A stretch of DNA of 61,259 bases, the filler included, from Squatina squatina (taxonomy: Eukaryota): the NCBI GenBank assembly GCA_031763465.1. It is 4 parts of 4 records of this genome, joined end to end, with 100 filler letters (N's around TTAATTAATTAA, not from the genome) between each part and the next. Parts side by side here need not be neighbours in the genome. Positions count along the whole stretch, not along the records: positions 44,042 to 61,259 come from JARFOE010413967.1; 3 more parts are not named here. One strand, 5' to 3'. The translations under genes were made by a program, and so were the position numbers. The notes under the pieces are model-generated. The model did no database searches. It worked only from the letters and a program-made list of their open reading frames with translations, and was not told the origin of the DNA. Of the stretch, positions 1,463 to 59,332 are shown piece by piece (position 1 is the stretch's first letter; the number at the start of each line of letters is the position of its first letter).

Positions 1463-2643
1463 GAGATTGAAGCTACAATCTAATGAGCAGGAACAGCTTG
1501 AGTTTCACTCTTACAGGTTGTGACACTGATCAAACCTGTCGGTCCGATTACAGCTTTGTAGCTCAGTCCCATTATTCTCCTCACTTCGTGCGATCTGTGT
1601 GCGTGAGGTGGATGAGCTACTGAAGATAGTGTTGCATGATTGCATCGAACAGAAAAATGAATGAGAAAGATATGCGGTTGTAATCTGAATGGGTATTCCC
1701 CAATGCCATTGTCTGCTGAACAAGGGTCAGGGTGTTGAGTTCTGATTAAATAAAGAACAAACAATTTGCACTTATAATGCACTTGGTCACATTTCAGGAA
1801 CATTCCAAAGCACTTGACATCGTACTGTTATTAGTAAAAGCAACAGACATTTTGTGCACCGAGATCCCAAATCAGCACTGAAGTGAATGAACTGTTTATA
1901 TTGGTAGTGTTTGAGGGAGGAATATTGACCTGGAACACAGCACGGGACAACTCACTACTCTTTTCAGGTTCTTCCACATAGCATCATACAGCACAGAAAG
2001 AATCCATTTGGCCCATTATGCCTGTGCTGGCTCTGTGAAAGAGCTCTCCAATTAGTCCCACTCCCCCTGCCCTTTCCCCACAGCCCTGCAAATTTCTCCT
2101 TTTCAAGTATTTATCCAATTCCCCTTCTGAAAGTTACTATTGAATCTGCTTCCACCGCCCTTTCAGGCAGCGCGTTCCAGTTCACAATAACCCTCTGCGT
2201 TTTATAAAATAAAAATAAATGTCTCGTGTTTGGNNNNNNNNNNNNNNNNNNNNNNNNNNNNNNNNNNNNNNNNNNNNNNNNNNNNNNNNNNNNNNNNNNN
2301 NNNNNNNNNNNNNNNNNNNNNNNNNNNNNNNNNTGAAAAAACAGTGCATGCGCGGAATTTTGAATAGGCAGCACCTCCAAAAAAAAAAAGAAAAAAAATT
2401 AGGGTGGAACATTGCCGATGGGATTCAGCAGTTCCAACACCTCTCAATTCAAATGATGCCTTAGAAGTTTATGTATTAATATTTATAACATTTATTTCAG
2501 GCCAGGGAAATAATTGACAAGCTACTTCAAAACATGTCTGTAAGTATTGCCCAGATTTAAATTAATTTGGCAGGCGCCATGTTTAGGGATTTGATTTGAT
2601 TTTAAGCATTGCTCACAGTCCTTTTCTCTTTGTCACTCTGCAG

Positions 2644-2811
2644 ATTACAGAGGAGTTGCTGAGCAGCCTGGGGTCGACAGTGATAGGTCTCAGCCCATCG
2701 ATTCTGCGAGTCATTCCAGCAACACTACTTGTGCACGTCCTGCCCAGCATGGCAGAGCATGAACATAAACTGAGTCCTGTCCAGAAGCTGATCATTGTAA
2801 ATAAACTATGG
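2644..2811 (+). CDS. Internal exon of a stereocilin/otoancorin/mesothelin-family gene (STRC-like)
   Basis: Polypyrimidine tract + cag acceptor, gt donor, 168 bp, phase 0-0, open: ITEELLSSLGSTVIGLSPSILRVIPATLLVHVLPSMAEHEHKLSPVQKLIIVNKLW. The Leu-rich helical repeat pattern resembles this family; STRC lies near SPG11 in human 15q (recalled). Confidence 0.5.
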
Positions 2812-2889
2812 GTTGGTATCAGAAGATCTCAGCATTTTATCTCTATTCCTCGCTCTCATTGTAGCGCTTTCAATTTCTGTATCCGGTTT

Positions 2890-3322
2890 CAGCCATGGCT
2901 CAGTGGGTAGCATTCTCTCGTCTGTGTCCGAAGGTTGCGGCTTTTAGCCCCACTCCAGAGATTTGAGCACTATATCTAGTGTGACACTTCAGCGCAGCAC
3001 TGAGGGAGTGCTACACTGTCGGAGGTGCTGTCTTTTGGGTGAGACGTGCAACCAAGGGCCCTTCTGCTCTCTCTCTCAAGAAGAGTAGGGGAGTTCTCCA
3101 CGGTGTCCTGGGCCAATACTTATTGTCAATGAACATCACTAAAAACAGATTATCTGGTCATTATCATATTGCTGTTTGTGGGAGCTTGCGGTGTGCCAAT
3201 TGGCTGCCACGTTTCCTGCATTACAACAATGACTACTCTTCAAAAAGTACTTCATTGGCTATAAAGCATTTTGGGACATCCAGGGTCATGAAAGGCGCTA
3301 TAGAAGTGCAAGTCTTTCTTTC
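2890..3322 (+). mobile_element. tRNA-derived DeuSINE (SacSINE1-like), near full length
   Basis: tRNA-like head (tggctcagtgggtagca), Deu-like core (tgagggagtgctacactgtcggaggtgctgtctttt) and tail (aaaggcgctatagaagtgcaagtctttctt). Related copies at 39190-39365 and 49047-49635. Confidence 0.75.
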
Positions 3323-4040
3323 ATAGAATGATACAGCACAGAAAGAGGCCATTTGGCCCAATTTGCCTGTGTCGGTGCTTTGAAAGAGCTATCCAACTAA
3401 CCCCTGCTCTTTCCCCGCTTCGTAACCTCCTACTAACAGTTCGTGGACGACAGGAATTATAAGAACAAATCACACACGGTTTTGGGGCTCAACCAACTCC
3501 TCAACCAAAACTCGGTCCTTGACGCCTGAGCCCTCGACTCCATCCCACAACATCCTACCTGCCATNNNNNNNNNNNNNNNNNNNNNNNNNNNNNNNNNNN
3601 NNNNNNNNNNNNNNNNNNNNNNNNNNNNNNNNNNNNNNNNNNNNNNNNNNNNNNNNNNNNNNNNNAATTTTACCTTTGTCCTGCTAGTGGAGAGTTTCAC
3701 CCACCAGCAGTACTAATTGGAGATTTATGCAATCATTGCTCACCATTCTTCACAGCTGCCAAATCATCTATAAACCCATTACTCTGCATTCAACTAATTT
3801 TCTTAATATGCATCTTCAATCCCTTTTGATGTTTGACTTATGATAGATTATGCGTCCATGTGCCCAGAACCTCCCAACCACCAATAAGGCATGTGTGTGA
3901 TGCCATACATTTGCTTTGGTTGTAGTGTGCTGGCTAAGTGTTCAGTGAGCCAGCTACTGTTATACAAAAACACATCTTGTGTTACAGAGTAAAACGTTTC
4001 TATTGTCACACACAGCAGCATATCCAAGGACCCTCTCTGA

Positions 4041-4277
4041 CAGGATGACCAGATCGAAAGAGTCCCAAACCGGGACAATCAGTCTGCGCATGTGCAGTCT
4101 GGTCTCCAGCGGGCCTGCACATGCGCAGTCCGTTCTTCGCCGGAACTGTGTGTGCGCAAGTGATTGGGCACGAAAAAACGGGACATTTGAGCACTTTTGA
4201 GTTAAGTGTCGGGACACCGGGCCACTTCCTCAAAAACCTGGATTGTCCTGGCAAAACCAGGATGTCTGGTCACACTA
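4041..4277. mobile_element. hAT-Blackjack-type MITE
   Basis: Termini caggatgaccagat ... gtctggtcacacta resemble the TAGGGTGACCAGAY TIR. 8-bp flanks ctctctga / cactctga match 7 of 8, consistent with a hAT TSD. Internal gtccc/gggac subterminal motifs. Confidence 0.7.
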
Positions 4278-5547
4278 CACTCTGAGCAATGCAGCAGGGG
4301 ATCTACTTGTATTTTTTCTGAAGGAAATATTTCCTCTGCGTGCTAAATTTAAGGAAATTTTTAAGACATGAGTTTATGATGTTGTTACACAAAGTGCAGA
4401 GTAAGATTTTCCTCCCTGGTTAGTTTTTTGGTGCATACTGAAAATTGTTACTAAATATTGGGCTGTCTCCTAACATTAGTAAAGTAGATGTTTAATTGTA
4501 CACTTCTTTCCCAATGACATTCGACGGTCTTATGTAAACTTATCATCTGAAGCTAAGTTTGGAATAAATACTTCAACAGTTTTCTTTTGTCTTTATACCT
4601 TATATAAATATGCACCTATAGGTATGTTAAATTTACCTCTGTGTGATCTGTAGTTTCCATTGAAATAGTCAAACAATGTCCAATTGAAAAATGGATCTAC
4701 TTGACCCCCACATAACAGTCCTCGGAAGTCTGCTGTTATCCTTAGCGCCTGAGATGACATATTATATTACATAGGATTACATTGCTTAGAATATAGAGCA
4801 TAAAAACAGGTCATTCGGCCCAACCAGTCTATGCCAGTATTTATGCTCCACATGCGCCTCCTCCCACTCTATATACTTCATCTCACCCTATCAACATACC
4901 CTTCCAATCCTTGCTCCCTCATGTACTTATCTGGCTTCCACTTTCATGCATCAATTCTATTCGCCTCAACCATTCCCTGTGGTAGCACATTCTCACCACT
5001 CTCTGAATAAAGAAGTTTCCTCTGAATTACTTACTGGATTTATTAGTGACTATCTTATATTTATGGCTGCTAGATTTGGGCACGCCCACAAGNNNNNNNN
5101 NNNNNNNNNNNNNNNNNNNNNNNNNNNNNNNNNNNNNNNNNNNNNNNNNNNNNNNNNNNNNNNNNNNNNNNNNNNNNNNNNNNNNNNNNNNNTTTTTTGT
5201 GATGAACCCATTTTCAGCCATTTAATAAAACCGCACCTGGTCACCAGTCTTAGAGACATCATGGAATACTCTTTAAATGGAAGGGAGAAAAAAAGAAACG
5301 ATTATCTTCTGTTACGCTGCCCGATTGTGCTGGTTGCTGGAAGATTTTATGTTTGCGATGAGGCAAATGAAACAGTTTGAGCGGAACTTGAACTGTAACC
5401 CAACCAGCACAATTTAGAGCGCAATTGTTTGGGGTGTAATTTCCCAATTGTGCCCAAAGCAGAAACTCGACCCCTCGACGGTTTACGGGTTATTGCAACT
5501 TTAGCAACAGAAAACAGAGCCAAGCAGTTCGTCCGTTGGACACTTAC

Positions 5548-5716
5548 CCCAGGGCTGCGACTCTATGATTTTAAGCTGTACACGGGCTGCACCCTCATGG
5601 TTTTCCCCAATCTCACGACACATGCTGAAGCAAAAGGCCACCATGTTGTGCTTCTCGCTATCCCCGGGGAGACACCGCTTGATGTAGTCTAGCAAAGCCG
5701 TCTTCAGGTTGCCATT
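5548..5716 (-). CDS. SPG11: Spatacsin exon (NGNLKTALLDYIKRCLPGDSEKHNMVAFCFSMCREIGENHEGAARVQLKIIESQPW)
   Basis: 169 bp with ag acceptor and gtaagt donor. Near-identical to recalled human SPG11 C-terminal segment LKTALLDYIKRCRPGDSEKHNMIALCFSMCREIGENHE. Confidence 0.95.
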
Positions 5717-7008
5717 CTATATTTAAGCAAAGGAATCTCCCAANNNNNNNNNNTCACGAAATATTTGGAACATTAGCAAGGTTAAGAAATGAAGGTCGAG
5801 TGCTGATGCTAACACATAGTATTCCAAGTGACAGGGCTGGGGTTAATAACGGGGAATCCCCACATACCGAGCTCCTAATCTACACTGTCACCATTATATG
5901 GTACAGTTGCCTCGTAGTTAGGGCATGGGACTCACTATCCAGAGGGTGAGTTGAAATCCCATCACAGCAAATTGGGAAATTGATTTCAGTAAATCTGGTC
6001 ATTTGTGAGCAGCAGCAGATAAAATGATGGTGAAAGCTGCCGGATTGTCCTAAAAATCCAACAGGTTCACCGATGTCCTTCTGGAGAAGCTACCACCCTG
6101 GTTGACTGTCTCTAAGAAGAGTAAGCCTACAATCCGATGTTGATTTAGGTCACGGTGGGTTGAAGACGAAATTAACGTAACTTAAGTTGTCTCTGAGTCA
6201 AACTATGACTCGAACAAAACCCTGCGGGTGTGAATATCAAAATGAAGACGGATCCAGAGAATATTGAATATGTGATCATTTGTGATGATTATCATCCCTA
6301 TGGATATACTTAATGATCTTGTATTGAACGATTAGTCTGCAATNNNNNNNNNNNNNNNNNNNNNNNNNNNNNNNNNNNNNNNNNNNNNNNNNNNNNNNNN
6401 NNNNNNNNNNNNNNNNNNNNNNNNNNNNNNNNNNNNNNNNNNNNNNNNNNNNNNNNNNNNNNNNNNNNNNNNNNNNNNNNNNNNNNNNNNNNNNNNNNNN
6501 NNNNNNNNNNNNNNNNNNNNNNNNNNNNNNNNNNNNNNNNNNNNNNNNNNNNNNNNNNNNNNNNNNNNNNNNNNNNNNNNNNNNNNNNNNNNNNNNNNNN
6601 NNNNNNNNNNNNNNNNNNNNNNNNNNNNNNNNNNNNNNNNNNNNNNNNNNNNNNNNNNNNNNNNNNNNNNNNNNNNNNNNNNNNNNNNNNNNNNNNNNNN
6701 NNNNNNNNNNNNNNNNNNNNNNNNNNNNNNNNNNNNNNNNNNNNNNNNNNNNNNNNNNNNNNNNNNNNNNNNNNNNNNNNNNNNNNNNNNNNNNNNNNNN
6801 NNNNTTAAACCTAGAACCTTTTTGTAGTAAACGAGGGAGATTCACATGAAAATATCTCACAAGTAGATTGCAATTTATAAAAGTGGAAAAGGTCGATTCT
6901 TGAATCATTGCTGTAATCATTTCATTGTTTCCATTCCTTTCTGAGGACACGTGGGAGAAGTCACAGATCAAAGAGGTCTAACTACTTTCCCAGACAACCC
7001 TCACCTAC

Positions 7009-14217: not shown

Positions 14218-14317
14218 NNNNNNNNNNNNNNNNNNNNNNNNNNNNNNNNNNNNNNNNNNNNTTAATTAATTAANNNNNNNNNNNNNNNNNNNNNNNNNNN
14301 NNNNNNNNNNNNNNNNN
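14218..14317. other. Artificial spacer 44N-TTAATTAATTAA-44N
   Basis: Identical 100-nt construct occurs three times. TTAATTAATTAA gives stops in all six frames. Confidence 0.97.
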
Positions 14318-44794: not shown

Positions 44795-45223
44795 GTGAGA
44801 CATTGTGACCTGTTTGTTGTTAGTCGGTGTTTACAGTCTCCTTGTTCACTCTTGGATAAGGTAACCGGTTTTCTAGATGTCAGCATTACTCTGTCGGTGG
44901 TGACTGGAACCAACTCATGAACTGTGTGTCTGTACTTGCCATGTTCCCCTTAACCAATAACCTTACTGAAGTTACAAAGCGATTTGAAGCTCTGACAGAA
45001 GAATTTTAGCAGGTTCCGGACCATCTTGTTACCCCGTGAAGAGTGAGCGCTGCAGCAGCTCATTACAATGTGTGGGTGGGTTTTCCAGGTAATGGCTCCA
45101 AAACTAATCCTGTTCTCACACTTGTCCGTGTTGATAATCACACTGAATGATATTAAGTGTTATCTCCATATATATTTCAATCAGACACTGGGACAGTATT
45201 TCTCTCCTCTCTCTTTCTTACAG

Positions 45224-46128
45224 CGAATATGTTGACTATTGTGATTCTCTCCCGAGGAAACTGCGGCCTTTCCAAGTGTATCTCTGTCTACATGGCGGCC
45301 ATGGCAACAGCAGATCTACTGGTCATGATCATCAATGTACTGGTATATTATATTTTCAGTTATCACTTTCCACTGTCCTTCCTATACCAGACTCCTGTGT
45401 GTAAGTTCATTCTGTACATGACTGCTGTCACCTTCGATCTGTCTGTTTGGTTCACCGTCTCCTTCACCTTTGACCGATTTGTAGTTATTTGCTGCCAGAA
45501 GTTTAAAGCAAAGTATTGCACCGAGAGAACTGCAGCCGCGGTTATAACAACGTTCTCTGTTTTCAGTTTTTTCAGGAATATTCCCTTTTTGTTTATCTAT
45601 GGACCTCAGCAAATTATTAACAAGGTGCAGTGGGGCTGCGGGCCAAGTGTTGCTTTTGTATCCTCCCCTCTTGGTGCAGGTTGTATCTGGTTTCACAGCA
45701 TCTGGGTCGTTTGGCTTCCTTTTACTTTAATTGTCTTGTTTAATTCTTTAACCGTCCACCGGATTTTAGTGGCCAGTAGAGCCCGCAGGGGCCTCCAGGG
45801 TCACAGGAGTGAGAATCACAGCGATACAGAGAGGGAGAGCCGAAGGAAATCCATCATTTTACTCTTCGCTATATCGGGCTGTTTTATACTGTTGTGGCTG
45901 ACAGGTGCAGTGACTTTTGTATCTACCAGACTGTCAAACCCCACTTATTACCGAGGTGACCACACAAACCCAGCTTATATCGCCACTGAAATCGGAGCCA
46001 TGCTGAAGTTTTTGAGTTCAATTCAAAACCCGTGCATTTATGCAGCGACACAAGGGAAGTTCAGAGAGGAGCAAAAGAATGTGGTGAAATCTTCCTGGAC
46101 ACTCGTTCTGAGATTAGTTAGAAAATAA
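45224..46128 (+). CDS. GPR139/GPR142-like class A GPCR, exon 2 (spliced product 324 aa)
   Basis: Strong acceptor ctctttcttacag. TM segments, ADLLV (TM2), FDRF (TM3), NPCIY (TM7), conserved Cys; open to TAA at 46128. Exon 1 + exon 2 = 975 nt. Confidence 0.9.
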
Positions 46129-49046: not shown

Positions 49047-49635
49047 GCAATGGCCCGGTGGCAGCACTCTCGCCCCTGAGTCACAAAGTCGTGGGTAAAG
49101 TCCCGCTCCAGAAACGGAAACCCAAAATCCATGCACTCTCGCCCCTGAGTCACAAAGTCGTGGGTAAAGTCCCGCTCCAGAAACATAAACCCAAAATCCA
49201 GCACTCTCGCCCCTGAGTCACAAAGTCGTGGGGAAAGTCCTGCTCCAGAAATGTAAACCCAAAATCCATGCTTGATACATCAAAGCAGTAGTGAGGGAGT
49301 GCTGCACTGCCAGAAGTGCTGCTTTTAGAATTAGATTTTTAACCGAAGCCTGCCCTCCCAGGTGTGCATAAATGATCTCTTGGCATTATTTCAAAGTAGA
49401 ACTGGAGAGGTTTCCCCAGAGTCCTGGTCAAAATTTCTCACTCAACGGACACCATTGAATTAGATTTGCTGGTCACCATTGCATTGCTGTTCTTGGGATC
49501 TTTGTGTGCACAAATTGACTGCTACCTTTTCGACATGACAAAAGTGACACATATTGAAAAGTATTTTGTTGGTCGTACTGTGCATTAGAACATCCAGATA
49601 TAGTGAAAGGCGATATAGAAACATAGGACTTTCTC
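49047..49635 (+). mobile_element. SacSINE1-like SINE with a triplicated head
   Basis: Deu core gagggagtgctgcactgccagaagtgct and tail gaaaggcgatatagaaac; three 68-69 bp head units start at 49064, 49133 and 49201. Confidence 0.75.
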
Positions 49636-52009: not shown

Positions 52010-52796
52010 TTACACTGAGATGAAAACCAGCGCCGTAGCAACCACACAAAGCCAGATGCGGATATTATAGCCCTCCAGCCACCTCAATACCACTACTCGC
52101 TTCCCATCTTTGTGGTTTTCAACCATCACCTTGGTTACCAGGAACCCCTCAGCCATGAGGGAAGTCTTCGTACGATATATCCAGGAGGTTGTCGGTCCGG
52201 CTCCAAACAACTCGCAGGTTGCAGGCAGAACCTCCTCACATAAAGGGAATGGAGTACTTTTAGATTCGGACCATAAAGCGTGTTTAGATCAAACAAGGTG
52301 TTAGGCTTTGTGGTCTTCTCAGTAAAACCAAACGCAATGCTTCTATTAACAGACGGGGAAACAGCATTTTGGTTAATCCCTTCTCAGCCATGGAAAGCTT
52401 TTTAATCCCCCTGTTAGCATATTGTGCTGAACTGATAGAATCACCTCTTAGATTGTCGATGACAGCAGATGGAAGATAATGGAAACTGTTAAAGTTGAAA
52501 CGCTGTGCTTTGATTGAGTCAGTGGGACCGTGCAGTCTAACTGCCTCATTGGTGTCTGTATAGAGAACTGTAAACTCTCCACTAACCGATAACATGCGCT
52601 GACTTCTCAGCCCACTCGGTACCAAGTTTAACTCTGCAGAGCTCCAGGCTGCATCAAATGTTTTGTTTTTGCCTTCTCTCTTCTTTGATGTAGTTTGTGG
52701 CTATTTTCTCTGAAACCAGGCTCTGAGTGATGATGTAAGCTGCTTAGATTTTTCGCCATGTCCAGTTGGATGACTTCTTTTCTAGTTGTTTCTGCT
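52010..52796 (-). pseudogene. Ecto-ADP-ribosyltransferase (ARTC family) pseudogene, main exon
   Basis: Across frameshifts: QLDMAKN, TFDAAWSSA, YTDTNEAVR, FNFNSFHYL, ANRG, NRSIAFGF, TLFDLNTLYG, FPLCEEVL..CELF, FLVTK, then hydrophobic end IWLCVVATALVFISV. This is the ARTC motif order. Confidence 0.82.
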
Positions 52797-53444
52797 TGTT
52801 GTGATGTATTTATTTACTTTAAGAACCACCACTCGAGTCTGCGAATTTCCGTAAAGCAATGTTCGAGCAATTGCAAATGCAAAGAGGCCTCTAACAGTAC
52901 AAGAGCCAATCTCAAATATACAAGGTCTTCAGTGTACATTTATAACAGTTCTGAGCTGACACAGGCTACCAGTCTTTGGGCGTGGACTTCACCTGGAAAC
53001 AAAGACTGCTAGCTTCTCACTCTTGATTAAAGGGACGTGCTGCCCCCGTGACCCCAGCAGATGGACTGTGCTAATCTAACTGTCCCTGATATCTCAACCT
53101 CAGCCTCGGAGGAACTTTAACTCCATGTAGCTAATCGGTTGTGATGGGTGTTCGCATCTCCTCCTTATCTTCATGTCATTAAGTCAAACTAGGCTGTCTG
53201 TGTCATCCCTTGTGCTCATTAAAATGTTTTGAGAACCTTTGTACCAGGCTGTGTTAGAAGCCTTCAGAATATGTATTCGGGTAAGTATCCCATCAAGCTT
53301 TACAGCAGTGGTAGCCATTTTGTTAACTTAATGTCTAATGTATCCACAGACTTTATATGGTTACTGTATTAAGTATTTAAGCACCGCCACTACAATGTTA
53401 GTTTTTTTTAACTTTAAATCTCTAATCCTTCATGACCCACTTCA
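52797..53444 (-). repeat. 3' LTR (648 bp)
   Basis: Direct repeat of 56979-57619, e.g. shared taagtatcccatcaagctttacagcagtggtag. TATA-like motif near 52940. Confidence 0.9.
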
Positions 53445-53456
53445 GTCCCTCCTTTT
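53445..53456 (-). promoter_or_regulatory. Polypurine tract
   Basis: Minus strand AAAAGGAGGGAC immediately before the TG of the 3' LTR. Confidence 0.85.
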
Positions 53457-53531
53457 GTACCCCTGGTCAGATCAACCTGAAACAGGTGGGACAATCTGAA
53501 GATTCTCTACCCAGTGGCTTCTGCAGGGATC

Positions 53532-55438
53532 CTACTGGAGTCCAGTGAGTTTCGAATCTATGCTATTCTGACATTTTATTACAGTCTTACCGAGGTCCTT
53601 CCGACCTAGGCTGAGCCTAGAAGGGCACCCTTTAAATGGCAAAAGTCCCATACGTGTTTTCCAATCTCTCATCCTCTGTGAGTGTTTTGACTGCTGCAAT
53701 AGCAGGGCGTACCCTTTGGTTGCCATCATCATCTGCACCACCTGAGATCTCAGCAGCCTCTGGTAGCAACAGCAACAGAGACTGACCAACAGAGACTGAC
53801 CAACAGAGACTGATCAACAGGATTGCTATGGATGCAGCAGCCGCTGCCATCCTTCCTACTTCCCACCACTTACACTGCATTCTTGCAGTTTTGGCCCATT
53901 TAACAGCGGAGTCCTTCAGTACTTTGGCAGTACCCTTTGCCAAGTCCACCTGTACCTTTCCCTTTGTGACTGTTTGACGGCTCTGCTCAGTGAATCCCTT
54001 AGTGGTGGCGAGGGCTCTCGCGACGGCCGCCCTGGCTACCTCCCTGGGGCGTCATCTATGTTCCACATACCATTCCACCACTGGCTAAACACATGGCCAG
54101 AGAGGGCCCTGGCTGCCAAGTGGGGCTCTCCTACAGTGAATGAGCCAGTGATCTGTAAGCAGAATATGTGCTTGTTACTACACATCAATTCTCCATAGAG
54201 TAAGCCCATACTACCTGTCCAAAAAGTAACAATGTGTCAGGGGGGCTTGGAGCACCTTGAAGGCTTTCTCGAGGGGCCGGACTGATACTACACTGGTGGA
54301 GTCATTACCGATGGAATTTAGGGTGTTACAGGTGCAGACAATGTAATGTTGTGATTTGGTGCAGCATTCACGTGTGGTCATTAGGAGGGTGCCACCCGGC
54401 CCTGGGGTTATGTACCCTCGAGACCCTACCTGGTATATGATCTGTCTCGTCCAACTCCCAGGGATTCAAATTTGTACCCCCCGGATAAGTACCATTAACA
54501 TGCACTCGTGGCATTATGGTCAGGAACCTAATTGTGGTCAGGAACTAAAGGTTCCTGGTTCTGATCCTGTAAATTTACAAGATCTAGCCCTTTCACAGTC
54601 TTATGTGTGTGTTGTGGTGCAGTACCATATCTTATACCTTCAAACTCTAATCTAACATTATCTATAAAATCCAAGGCCAACATGTCACACGCCCTCCCCT
54701 CAGACTGTGGTTATCAATCCATCTGCAGGGGGTGATATGGTGGCTGAACACTTATGGGTTTCTTATAACCACAAGATGTCAGATTAAAACTTCTTACATC
54801 AGTAAATCCCAATCGCTTAATCATATGGTTAGACAATTCTTGGCAATACTGTCCCTCAAGTCAGGGTTCCCAAATAAATGGGAGTAAGTTAGGCCATCTT
54901 GCTGTGATGGACAGCTGGGCGACTGCCGTGCCATCAATCCCCGTAGTTCCATCATCGTATATGCCTGCAACCGTTATTACAATTATTCGAACCCCAGTCC
55001 GCTGCATGTATTGCTTTAGTCAGGTTACAAATGGTGGATCTCGCACACCTTGGTCGTGTGTGTTTATGCAATGGCCTGGTCCGTAATCCAGACATTAGGC
55101 TTTCTTACCCACTCTTATTTCCCTCCCATGGGGAGTTGCACATACTGCCCAGGGTGTAAACATGTATCTCCGTCGATGTGCATGTTGGGCGCCTCCCATG
55201 CTGTAGCCGTCCACAGTAGAGCAGAGATCACTGTGATGATCCTCTTGGCTGCCATTGCCCCGTAGGTCTATGTGAAACAAAGTAGTGAAGAGAACTGCTG
55301 CTCGCTCTCCTGTTGGCAGAAACAGATTTTACGTTATAAGGTTTTACCTGTGACCATTGTTTCCACCTTCCTTGCCGTGCCATATCTGTACACACCCATA
55401 TCATTCTCATCATTATTACCTGCTATGGCCCCTGCCAT
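53532..55438 (-). pseudogene. env-like type I membrane glycoprotein remnant
   Basis: Across frameshifts and stops: signal-like MAGAIA/VIMMRMIWVC; Cys-rich RECCTKSQHYIVCTCNTL and MCSNKHIFCLQITGSFTVG; amphipathic helix; KWWEV; TM AAAAASIAILLISL; CCCC; tail with YQRL and YALL. It occupies the env position before the PPT. Confidence 0.65.
53773..53814. repeat. 14-bp unit x3 (caacagagactgaY)
   Basis: Direct reading. Removing two units restores the frame LLISLCCCCYQ. Confidence 0.9.
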
Positions 55439-55544
55439 TTTGAGGCCAGCCCGGGACTGATAGTACAGACTTCCTCTTTGGAGGATTGATGTGCAGTAAC
55501 AAGCACACCTTCTGCTTACAGATCCCCGACTCATTCACTGTAGG
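54130..55544. repeat. 91-bp inverted repeat; arms 54130-54220 and 55454-55544; 77/91 identical, no indels
   Basis: Hand alignment. Also visible in the ORF track as PTVNEPVICKQNMCLLLHINSP (+) versus PTVNESGICKQKVCLLLHINPP (-). Confidence 0.95.
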
Positions 55545-56958
55545 GATCTCTCCATCATTGCAATATCCATTACTTTGGCAAGTCCTCTGGTTCCTCACTT
55601 CTCTCACTTCATTCCTGGTCCGCAATCTCCTGTTGCTCCCTCACCTCGGACCTTAATCCTTTCAACCGCTCACACAATGCTACAACATAGCTTCTTATTC
55701 TATCTCTCAATGGTCCTACACCTTCACTGCCTGCTGAGGTTCCCTCCGGGAGCTGCATGGCCCTGCCGCTCATTGCCTCCAATGTCTCAAAATTCCAGTT
55801 CAAATCATGAAACCATTTTCTTAAAATTCAAAACTACTAATCCTTTTCTGTGAACCTAAAACTCTTATGTTGTAGAACTCAACACTTACGACAAGCAGAA
55901 TTTTACTGCAGCCACAAAGTAAGTCGTTTTTTTTCATCATTTAATAGTTTGGTTAACTTCAATAGTTTCAATTTAATTCAGACTAATTATATCCAACATA
56001 CACTTTCCACTCAAAGAAACAGTGCTGTCGCAGCCTGTAGCCTAGGACTTTTAGATAATCTTTTTTTTGAAAAACAACCCCACACGCAAAGTTCTCCTTT
56101 CTGAATTTCATTATCTGACCCTTTTGTTCAACCCAATCTATAATTACTTCTTACTTCTTACTGTTCCATTCGATTGCAGCTGTAAGTTCAAGGTTTAAAG
56201 CTCATCATATTCCCTCCAACAACACATATATATGCATACGCTAATAAACTCAAACAAACACTCTTGCATAATGTTCAAGACAAGAGCACAAAGGGTGAAC
56301 GACTACCAGATCCGTGGACAAAAGTGGGTGGAGATATAACAGACAGCTTTTTCAAGACAGACTTTCAAACCAACACAGTATTTAATCGTTTTAACGATTT
56401 ATACAGGTGTTGAGAAGAAACGCAAACATTCACTCCTTCACCTTACTTGAAACTTTCTTTTTCTTATGCACCAGAAATTCGGTGAGCGACCCTTCGGGGA
56501 CACACTCTTGATCTCTACCAACAATGACTAGAAGTCCTGCTACCACAATTCCCCGTGGGAACGGATTTCCCGTTCTCCTACGACCGTCCCTACAGACGTT
56601 CTGGTGGGAACGATACCACCCACTCCCCAATTCCTACAATCGCGTCCTACAATCGTTCTCGTGGGAAGCGGACCCCTACACTTCTCCTACGGCCATTCTT
56701 TACTTCGCTTGGTTTACCCTCGGCACAATACACCACCCACCCCCACCCACCCTGTTTGCCTAAAGTACCGCATTCTTGGTGCCCGCCATCTTTGATTACT
56801 TCATCCACAGACTCGTCCCTTAGTTTGGATGTTCTCTTCGGCTCACCGGTTTACCGACACAAACGTCGACATCCCTATCTAATGGGTTGTAAATTGAACG
56901 TACTCACCCGTCTTCTGATGTCGACATTCAGTCCGGCACTGGCGGCTGAGCCCCAGAA

Positions 56959-56976
56959 AACCTGCCAACTACGCTA
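56959..56976 (-). promoter_or_regulatory. Primer-binding site, tRNA-Ser type
   Basis: Minus strand TAGCGTAGTTGGCAGGTT versus TGGCGTAGTCGGCAGGAT (complement of the vertebrate tRNA-Ser 3' end): 15/18, 2 nt after the LTR CA. Confidence 0.85.
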
Positions 56977-56978
56977 AT

Positions 56979-57619
56979 TGTTGTGTGTTTAATTGCACTT
57001 TTAAAATCACCAATCGAATCTACGAAGTTGAGTAAAACAAAGATTTATTCGAGCAATTTGCAAGAGAGACGAGGCCTCAAACAGTTCAAGTGTCTCTCTC
57101 AAAGAAGCAAAGTTTGCGAAACTTATTTATAATAGTTCTGAGCTGACACATGTAAGCAATCTATGGGCTTGGATTTCGCCTTCTTACATTCATCACATTA
57201 GGAAAGAAACAAAGATTGTTAGCTTCTCACCCTTGATGCTCGGGATGTTGTGCCCCTAGCAGATGTGCTGTGTTATTCTAACTGCCTGTGACATCTCAAC
57301 CTCAGCCAAGAAGGAACATTAATTCCCTATAGCTCCTCCGCTGCGACGGGTGTTGACATCAACCGAGACTGTCTGTGTCTTATCTTGTGCTCATTAAAAT
57401 GTTGTGAGAACCATTGTATTAAGGATGTATCAGAAGCCTTCAGAATTTGTCTTTGGTTAAGTATCCCATCAAGCTTTACAGCAGTGGTAGGCGTTTTGTT
57501 AGCGTATTGTCTAATGCAGTTACAGACTTTATGTGGTCACGATATTAACTAGTTAAGCATTACCACTGCAAAGTAAGTTATTTTACTTCAAATCCCTAAT
57601 CCTTCATGTCCCAAATTCA
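56979..57619 (-). repeat. 5' LTR (641 bp)
   Basis: Homologous to 52797-53444. Minus-strand TATAAATA at ~57124-57131 and AATAAA at ~57044-57049. Confidence 0.9.
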
Positions 57620-57678
57620 GTGAAAGTCAATAGACTGCGAGATGTAAATGGATGAGGAGAGTCAAGGATTATAAACAT
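57620..57678 (-). pseudogene. Probable signal-peptide part of the ART pseudogene, separated by the LTR element
   Basis: Reads MFII/LTLLIHLHLAVY*LS (one frameshift, one stop) and would continue into AETTRKEVIQLDMA on the other flank. Confidence 0.5.
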
Positions 57679-58015
57679 CAGTTTTTTGGAAGCAGCAACA
57701 GTTTACGGTAGCACAATGGAGATATCTGGACCAATTATATGACAGATGTGAGTTCAAATACCACCAGTACAGTTTGTCAATATAAATGTAGTTAATTTCA
57801 ATAAATCTATAGAATTAATGGCTACCATGAAACTACAGTATTGTCAGAAACACAACTTATGGATGGAAACATACCGTCCTTATCTTTCTGACGATATGTG
57901 ATTCAAGATCCATAGTAATATGTTGAGCCTGAACTGGGCTCACAAACAACTCAGTTTCAACAAATGACTGCGAAAAAGAATAAAGCCTAACAGATGAAAT
58001 GGGAATGAACTGGGC

Positions 58016-58072: not shown

Positions 58073-59244
58073 TTGCAAATTTACATTGCGATTCTGATCA
58101 AAAAATATCAGCAGTTCAAAAAGGCCATTTACCCCATTGAGCCTGATTTCCCATTTCATGAGATCAGTGACTCAACTCCATGGAAAACCATTTCCCCCAT
58201 ATTGCTTATGTAAACAAAAACCGCGCTAAATCCGGCAACTTAATGCTTAATTATATAATTTCTGGTTTCAATGTGAAAAGTTCACTGTTTGTGACAGAGA
58301 CATTTTTGTCGGTGCCACGTCATCGCAGATTCACAGATTGATACAGTATTGAAGGGGATTTATTCGGCCCATCGTGTCTGTGCCGGCTCTTGGGCAGAGA
58401 TATCCCATTAATCCCGCCCCCTGCTTTTTCCCCACGGCGCAGTATTTTCTGCCTTCAAGTAATGTACAATAAATGGTCAAACTTTAAAAGGAACACTATG
58501 AGTTGGAGATTCAGATGCACAGTTTGGGCCACAAACTCTGTCAGAGGTTACAACCGTTCCTGCTTCATCGCCCTTTGTGAGGCAGGTCTGACGTTCCAAT
58601 CAAAATTCTTTCCGAATAAAAGTGGCCACAGTCCCAGAATTAGACTGGTCACGTGGGGACCGATAGCAGCCGGTCGATGTCGAGGAAGAACCAAAGGTGA
58701 CATGAACAAACAGCGATTTGTTGTGATCTGGAATGCAGTGCCTAAAAGGGCGGTGGCAGCAGATTCAATCGTAACTTTCAAAGAGAACTGGATCAACACT
58801 TGAAATGAAAAATAAATTACCTGGCTATGAGGAAAGAGCAGGGGAGTGAGATTAATCGAATAGCTCTACCAAAGAACCTGCACAGGCACGATGGGCAGAA
58901 TGACCTCCTACTGTGTGGAATAATTCGATAATTGTATGATTCTATGATAAATATCCCGATGAGAAAGATCTGATTCGGGAGATTAGGGGAGGGAAATTAG
59001 CGAGCTCCTCAAGAACGTTAAACACTTAATAAATCGATTTTCTGTGTGACTTGTGTGGTTTAATTCAGTGAATTGTCTGTAAATGGCAACAGAGAAACGG
59101 ATTGAGAGTTTTTAGATTGGACAGATGTTATGTTGTTTGAGGTCAATGAGCCTTCTGCCTTCATTTTCAGAGGACCAGAATGAGCCAAACTTTCTTTGAA
59201 CCTCTGTGGGGAAATTTGGGGATGTTGACCAACTTGCTCAGTGC

Positions 59245-59332
59245 GGCAGCCTGGCCGAGTGGTCTTAAGCCCCTGTGTTCAGGTCACAGTTCTTCTCCTT
59301 TGGAGACCTGGGTTCGAATCCCACTGCTGACA
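59245..59332 (+). tRNA. tRNA-Leu(CAG)-derived gene, diverged, probably a pseudogene
   Basis: A box tggccgagtgg, anticodon arm ctgtg-ttCAGgt-cacag, long variable arm, B box ggttcgaatcc. Small insertions and stem mismatches. Confidence 0.75.

Follow-up and report, generated by a model that had tools for sequence, protein, structure and literature searches.

Inverted copies of an element's own sequence have precedents of several kinds. Defective HIV-1 proviruses carry inversions and large deletions, and reverse transcriptase is described as often switching template (PMC9278108, accessible text). For an avian retrovirus, Hajjar and Linial (1995), as summarized in the accessible part of a review (PMC12925331), reported an inverted repeat in which nearly 50% of the adenosines had been changed. 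In maize, Mu killer, which belongs to a DNA-transposon system, has a hairpin of about 4 kb for which silencing has been demonstrated (PMC3440606, accessible text).

The locus described here lies in a window (the whole stretch of DNA that was analysed) of 61,259 nucleotides from the shark Squatina squatina. Like the HIV-1 proviruses, as far as the available account of them extends, it is bounded by LTRs and has an apparent large internal deletion and an inverted piece of its own sequence, but it is fossilized in the germ line, and its inverted duplication is short and has left the original in place. The comparison is offered only as an analogy, in which the feature would work as a defective provirus does when part of its interior is duplicated in inverted orientation. 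With the avian retrovirus, as reviewed, it shares an inverted repeat in a retroviral genome and changes that can be read as G–U pairs in RNA, whereas here at most 8 of 50 positions are affected and CpG-type and 5′-G contexts occur among them. Mu killer, in the accessible record, is likewise defective, has its own coding sequence duplicated in inverted orientation and could give a hairpin RNA; in the present case the element is of the LTR type, the repeat is only 91 bp with a 1.2-kb loop, and it is known from sequence alone. A literature search, conducted mostly outside subscription papers, found no LTR element described as carrying an antisense copy of env.

A decayed LTR element with an inverted repeat

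Both arms of the repeat lie inside a 4.8-kb element on the minus strand, with ∼3.5 kb between its LTRs (Table 1). The element is a defective LTR retroelement, or endogenous retrovirus, that has kept its LTRs, a primer-binding-site (PBS)-like stretch and a purine tract. The position of the purine tract before the left LTR and of the PBS-like site after the right LTR confirms the minus strand as the sense of the element, as had been predicted. Positions 56965–56976 of the PBS-like site agree at 9 of 12 letters, compared by eye, with the Ser tRNA end of an insect tRNA (PMC13524379, supplement). The two LTRs are identical at 483 of 608 aligned columns (79%) and differ at 125 (20.6%), with 73 gap columns and large indels. 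No target-site duplication was seen, the best 5-nt comparison of the flanks by eye giving 2 of 5 matches in what is an old element. Because a target-site duplication was not seen, and because of the large indels, a clock based on the LTRs may be wrong. Pfam searches in six frames of the element gave no match to gag, reverse transcriptase or the integrase core; with an internal region of just 3.5 kb, we read their absence as deletion.

Table 1. Features of the LTR element, in the order of its sense strand
Feature	Position	Strand	Remarks
5′ LTR	56979..57619	minus	641 nt, TG...CA; direct repeat of 52797-53444
Primer-binding-site-like stretch, probably tRNA-Ser type	56961..56978	minus	Directly after 5′ LTR
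Leader or remnant without recognizable gag, protease or reverse transcriptase	55830..56960	minus	No Pfam match in frames tested; many stops
Likely integrase C-terminal remnant before insert	55545..55827	minus	72 stop-free codons, then stops; same frame as GPY/F-type motif
Arm B	55454-55544	minus	91-nt antisense env-like copy; two stops in integrase-like frame
Likely integrase tail after insert	55228..55453	minus	GPY/F-type motif at 55437, interrupted by a stop; end of frame at 55230
Broken env-like gene	53632..55255	minus	Putative signal-peptide-like start at 55255; at least three frame switches; hydrophobic C-terminal segment
Candidate template-switch junction, 14 nt	54279..54292	minus	13/14 match to arm B end, direct orientation
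Arm A	54130-54220	minus	env-like coding sequence; source of the copy
Polypurine tract	53446..53462	minus	Before 3′ LTR
3′ LTR	52797..53444	minus	648 nt, TG...CA ends

The arms, of 91 nt each, are inverted, ungapped and separated by 1233 nt, and are identical at 77 of 91 positions (BLASTN, E = 5e-23); the 14 differences comprise nine transitions and five transversions. In an ungapped scan the pair scored 56, the best direct-repeat score over eight shuffles being 14.5. The inverted repeat of env-like sequence in this decayed minus-strand element is real, and a recount reproduced exactly the dimensions, differences and pairing from which a long-range duplex had originally been predicted. Read as minus-strand RNA, the arms form 77 Watson–Crick and eight G–U pairs with six mismatches, i.e. 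85 of 91 positions pair and a single transition gives C–A; on the plus strand the ratio is reversed, with 77 Watson–Crick pairs, one G–U pair and 13 mismatches. The 8:1 excess of G–U over C–A on the minus strand has a one-sided binomial P of 0.0195, in keeping with the value of about 0.02 given before, and a two-sided P of 0.039. All pairing and divergence figures for the arms rest on one copy of the element.

By prediction, a duplex in the sense RNA would be stable, at −139.2 kcal/mol for the minus strand against −114.9 kcal/mol for the plus strand. Folding of the minus-strand RNA, a check put forward with the original prediction, retained the arm helix in both the minimum-energy and the centroid structure of a 1491-nt stretch, shuffles of that length not being included. 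A search of positions 52500–58000 against Rfam (E up to 5) gave nothing in the arms and one chance-level match elsewhere. The arm motif had no matches among metagenome contigs and viral contigs, and the LTR motif had none among metagenome contigs.

A broken host-type NAD:arginine ADP-ribosyltransferase exon (∼52010–52796, minus strand; PF01129, E = 6.5e-5) begins at the edge of the 3′ LTR; insertion of the element may have taken place at the exon start. Elsewhere in the window, a rhodopsin-family 7TM receptor is encoded by a single-exon open frame of 323 codons (45157–46128, plus strand; PF00001, E = 7e-22), delimited from stop to stop with no ATG at its very start. ARAGORN reports a tRNA-Leu(CAG) at 59245–59332 (plus strand), which may be a tRNA-derived repeat. 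Tandem arrays of 18-nt and 8-nt units are found at 1–1300 and 2200–7000, and three head-to-tail copies of 68–69 nt at 49062–49271. The N gaps near 14218, 28759 and 43942 yield spurious inverted-repeat calls.

The env-like gene and the setting of the antisense copy

The gene containing arm A was called env-like by position, since it stands before the purine tract and has a hydrophobic segment at its end; Pfam gives it no name in the element. A phmmer search of 1.84 billion representatives gave five hits, among which P0001, P0002 and P0005 are related sequences; P0003 and P0004, bacterial-type Trp/His-rich repeat proteins, were dropped. The best homologue, P0001 (E = 3e-15), is an annotated protein of 362 amino acids from the catshark Scyliorhinus torazame (XP_072343881.1) and may be a retained open frame. 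It matched no Pfam family at E up to 1, retrieved only itself in a word-index protein search and had no relatives among viral contigs; the word-index search gave nothing for two single-frame read-throughs of the element. Homologues cover the gene from 54707 downward only, and their alignment on the minus strand places the frame switches, at least three in number, between 54707 and 53722. A weak Pfam match of the C-terminal helix and hydrophobic segment to synaptobrevin (E = 0.098) was rejected; there was no usable Atlas hit for that ORF. Inside the gene there are also a near-perfect 22-nt hairpin (54563–54584), a tandem triplication of 14 nt (53773–53820) and a tandem duplication of 18 nt (54513–54545).

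Both P0001 and P0005 run through arm A in the sense (minus) orientation; with arm B they align on the plus strand (50% over 30 amino acids for P0001, 61% over 28 for P0005). Their sense match to A and antisense match to B make arm A the coding sequence and arm B its antisense copy, as the original prediction had it.

Arm B had been placed 15 nt before an env start at the ATG at 55438. There is indeed an ATG at that distance, but it makes a poor env start: its frame has 34 codons with no hydrophobic stretch in the first 30 residues, its best nine-residue hydropathy is 0.44 (the Met at 55255 reaches 2.84), and the last two letters of the ATG fall in the codon for Trp in a motif at 55437. The Met at 55255 lies 198 nt beyond arm B; it opens a signal-peptide-like stretch and overlaps the end of an integrase-like frame; env overlaps pol in some retroviruses. 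We infer that this Met is the better env start. A simple and crude pyrimidine rule detected no strong splice-acceptor-like site between 55900 and 55255.

The frame around arm B may belong to an integrase C-terminus. The Trp-anchored motif at 55437 fits, in the expected place and on the expected strand, the GPY/F consensus published for the C-terminal domains of integrases (PMC1224870; also PMC2577118 and PMC3104679; accessible text), but its aromatic position is a stop. Shuffling the internal region 1500 times produced a motif of this type, a pattern chosen after the sequence was seen, 76 times, and 10 times when a basic residue had to precede it. The two stops brought by arm B fall between the 72-codon open stretch and this in-frame motif, and the open stretch is one that we take to resemble an integrase tail. 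Pfam and PDB searches of the frame did not find integrase, the PDB sequence searches being blank or at chance level. Since the surrounding frame is taken as an integrase tail, arm B is read as a likely interruption of the integrase C-terminus, i.e. as inserted in pol rather than forming an element of the env leader. The suggestion that the duplex perhaps controls env translation fits poorly with this setting, with arm B probably in the integrase tail and the better start well downstream.

Origin of the copy and of its pairing

We favour, with a probability of about 0.6, a reading in which a template switch in reverse transcription placed a backwards copy of a piece of env in the integrase tail, followed by neutral decay. 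The candidate junction lies 58 nt from arm A, and its match begins exactly at the end of arm B; a match of this kind, for any arm end, occurred in 13 of 3000 shuffles. The same stretch is also a partial inverted repeat of the start of arm A. Growing minus-strand DNA would have jumped to this 14-nt inverted repeat in env, or folded back there, used its own product as template for ∼91 nt and then returned, the outcome being a defective genome already without gag and most of pol. The arms would have been identical or nearly identical when the element integrated, and the 14 differences would be later DNA mutations. The 8:1 G–U excess would then be mainly chance, perhaps aided by strand-biased mutation, and a read-through RNA would still form the 85-bp duplex, as a by-product.

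The divergence of the arms is consistent with such a history. It amounts to 14 of 91 positions (15.4%), compared with 125 of 608 (20.6%) for the LTRs (Fisher P = 0.32; K2P distances of 0.17 and 0.24). As the two are indistinguishable, post-insertion decay suffices for all 14 differences, and decay at the LTR level leaves the arms no long prior history; changes made after insertion would never have come under selection in the RNA of a progenitor. Most of the differences alter an amino acid in the env frame (9.5 non-synonymous and 4.5 synonymous; pN/pS of 0.54–0.77 on small numbers). P0005 has the same residue as arm B at 17 of 29 codons and the same as arm A at 15, the figures for P0001 being 14 and 13, respectively; among the nine codons that differ between the arms, P0005 agrees with B at five and with A at three, and P0001 at two and one. 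The outgroups being no closer to arm A than to arm B, env was not conserved after copying. Together, these results argue against selection for the duplex in a progenitor whose env still functioned.

The one real support for a selected duplex is nevertheless found in an excess of pairing over LTR-level decay, and it stands though weakened. With the LTR pair as the clock, 14 unpaired positions would be expected and six are seen (binomial P = 0.009; P = 0.0003 when averaged over overlapping LTR windows). The probability of at least eight G–U pairs given 14 differences is 0.010–0.012 with the transition share of the LTRs and 0.024 with that of other repeats. These tests share data with the 8:1 test and use arm ends trimmed for the best match; the trimming, the doubtful LTR clock and the choice of the pair from a very large scan weaken the excess, and that choice also makes the P of 0.02 modest. 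As a control within the window, 12 other inverted pairs were examined, of which one shows a stronger strand bias, 21:5 (P = 0.002); the full set of 13 pairs, including the arms, excluded an unrecorded number of pairs with N or fewer than five transitions. The 21:5 pair consists of oppositely oriented dispersed repeats at 1992–2190 and 58718–58915, 56 kb apart in the window.

Selection on the duplex could have acted if the rearranged genome founded a helper-dependent lineage, in which pairing served compaction, packaging or export, or gave dsRNA that silenced the env of the helpers. This would account for the shortage of unpaired positions and for a bias on the sense strand, which the PBS and purine tract fix independently, and it would suit both the helix in the centroid fold and an element that kept its LTRs, PBS and purine tract while losing gag-pol. 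We nonetheless consider it unlikely: post-insertion decay alone can explain the number of differences, five of the 14 are pair-breaking transversions and none is compensatory, and a pair picked from so large a scan is matched by a stronger bias in one of the 12 ordinary repeat pairs. Very unlikely, in our view, is A-to-I editing by ADAR of an RNA duplex before another round of reverse transcription, with the G–U pairs as fossil edits. A-to-G changes would turn A–U into G–U on the sense strand only, which is the direction seen, and the A-to-G hypermutated inverted repeat of the avian retrovirus offers a precedent (PMC12925331, a review, accessible text). However, at most 8 of the 50 A–U or G–U positions could have been affected here, as against nearly 50% of adenosines in that case, dense A-to-G changes in ADAR-favoured contexts were not found in the arms, and three of the eight G–U pairs are in a CpG-type context. 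ADAR disfavours a 5′ G, yet a G precedes four of the eight Gs, compared with 11 of the 50 As in the arms.

An inverted copy might instead have been made in genomic DNA after insertion, by a template switch in repair or replication between sites 1.2 kb apart; it would then occur at this locus alone and postdate the LTRs. The lower K2P distance of the arms and their five transversions where about nine are expected (P = 0.08) point in this direction, but the difference between arms and LTRs is not significant and the strand bias is left unexplained, and we give this origin a very small chance. Retention of the hairpin by the host to supply small RNAs that act on related env genes, with pairing selected at the locus, strikes us as highly improbable. 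Conservation of the arms does not significantly exceed that of the LTRs, the repeat spans only 91 bp and a copy diverged by 15% would presumably target active relatives poorly, even though pairing exceeds LTR-level decay, the adjacent broken ADP-ribosyltransferase exon has the same orientation and could supply read-through, and Mu killer provides a plant precedent (PMC3440606, accessible text).

Affinities of the env-like protein

LTR elements with an env like the fusion proteins of negative-strand RNA viruses have been described. The env of lokiretroviruses is paramyxovirus/pneumovirus F-like (PF00523), and the main text on them, in its accessible part, names no shark host (PMC7947760); Anakin comprises BEL/Pao elements of mosquitoes with a chuvirus glycoprotein (PMC7642597 and PMC12440569, accessible text). 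The present element differs from what is available on these in that no reverse transcriptase remains and in that its features point to PF24664 and rhabdovirus G. In a language-model feature search, the nearest proteins to P0001 were the fusion proteins of Monjiviricetes (PF24664; score 0.95, 18 of 30 hits) and rhabdovirus G, not retroviral TM, and PF24664 was present on 76% of the top cluster. An AlphaFold model of P0001 from a seven-row alignment was too poor (pLDDT of 39.7), and Foldseek with this model gave no match at E up to 0.001 in viral and PDB libraries. The cysteine spacing of the env-like protein presumably also resembles that of pneumovirus F. Taken by themselves, the language-model features leave the resemblance of this shark env-like gene to negative-strand RNA virus fusion proteins at roughly even odds.

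The accessible text of PMC13524379 leaves vertebrate elements to later work. An LTR element of cartilaginous fish with a negative-strand-type env came up neither in literature searches nor in the accessible text of two surveys of vertebrate EVEs (PMC11089739 and PMC11521997) and of PMC4422223, whose supplements may list one, and none is shown in the accessible part of a shark env survey (10.64898/2026.05.06.723177). The env type suggested by these features is possibly an undescribed one in shark LTR elements. In a more far-reaching scenario, which we think quite unlikely, a shark lineage combining a class I-type integrase tail with a negative-strand-type fusogen would have given rise to a helper-dependent derivative with a selected anti-env duplex, acting in the manner of Mu killer or as a switch for packaging or export.

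On the best reading, the inverted repeat records a copying error, fossilized in a dead element, and is of little consequence, and the case illustrates how a single test of G–U bias can mislead. Were arm B to prove family-wide with covariation, it would represent a self-encoded antisense device in a vertebrate retroelement. The resemblance of the env to negative-strand fusion proteins may be worth more than the inverted repeat itself.
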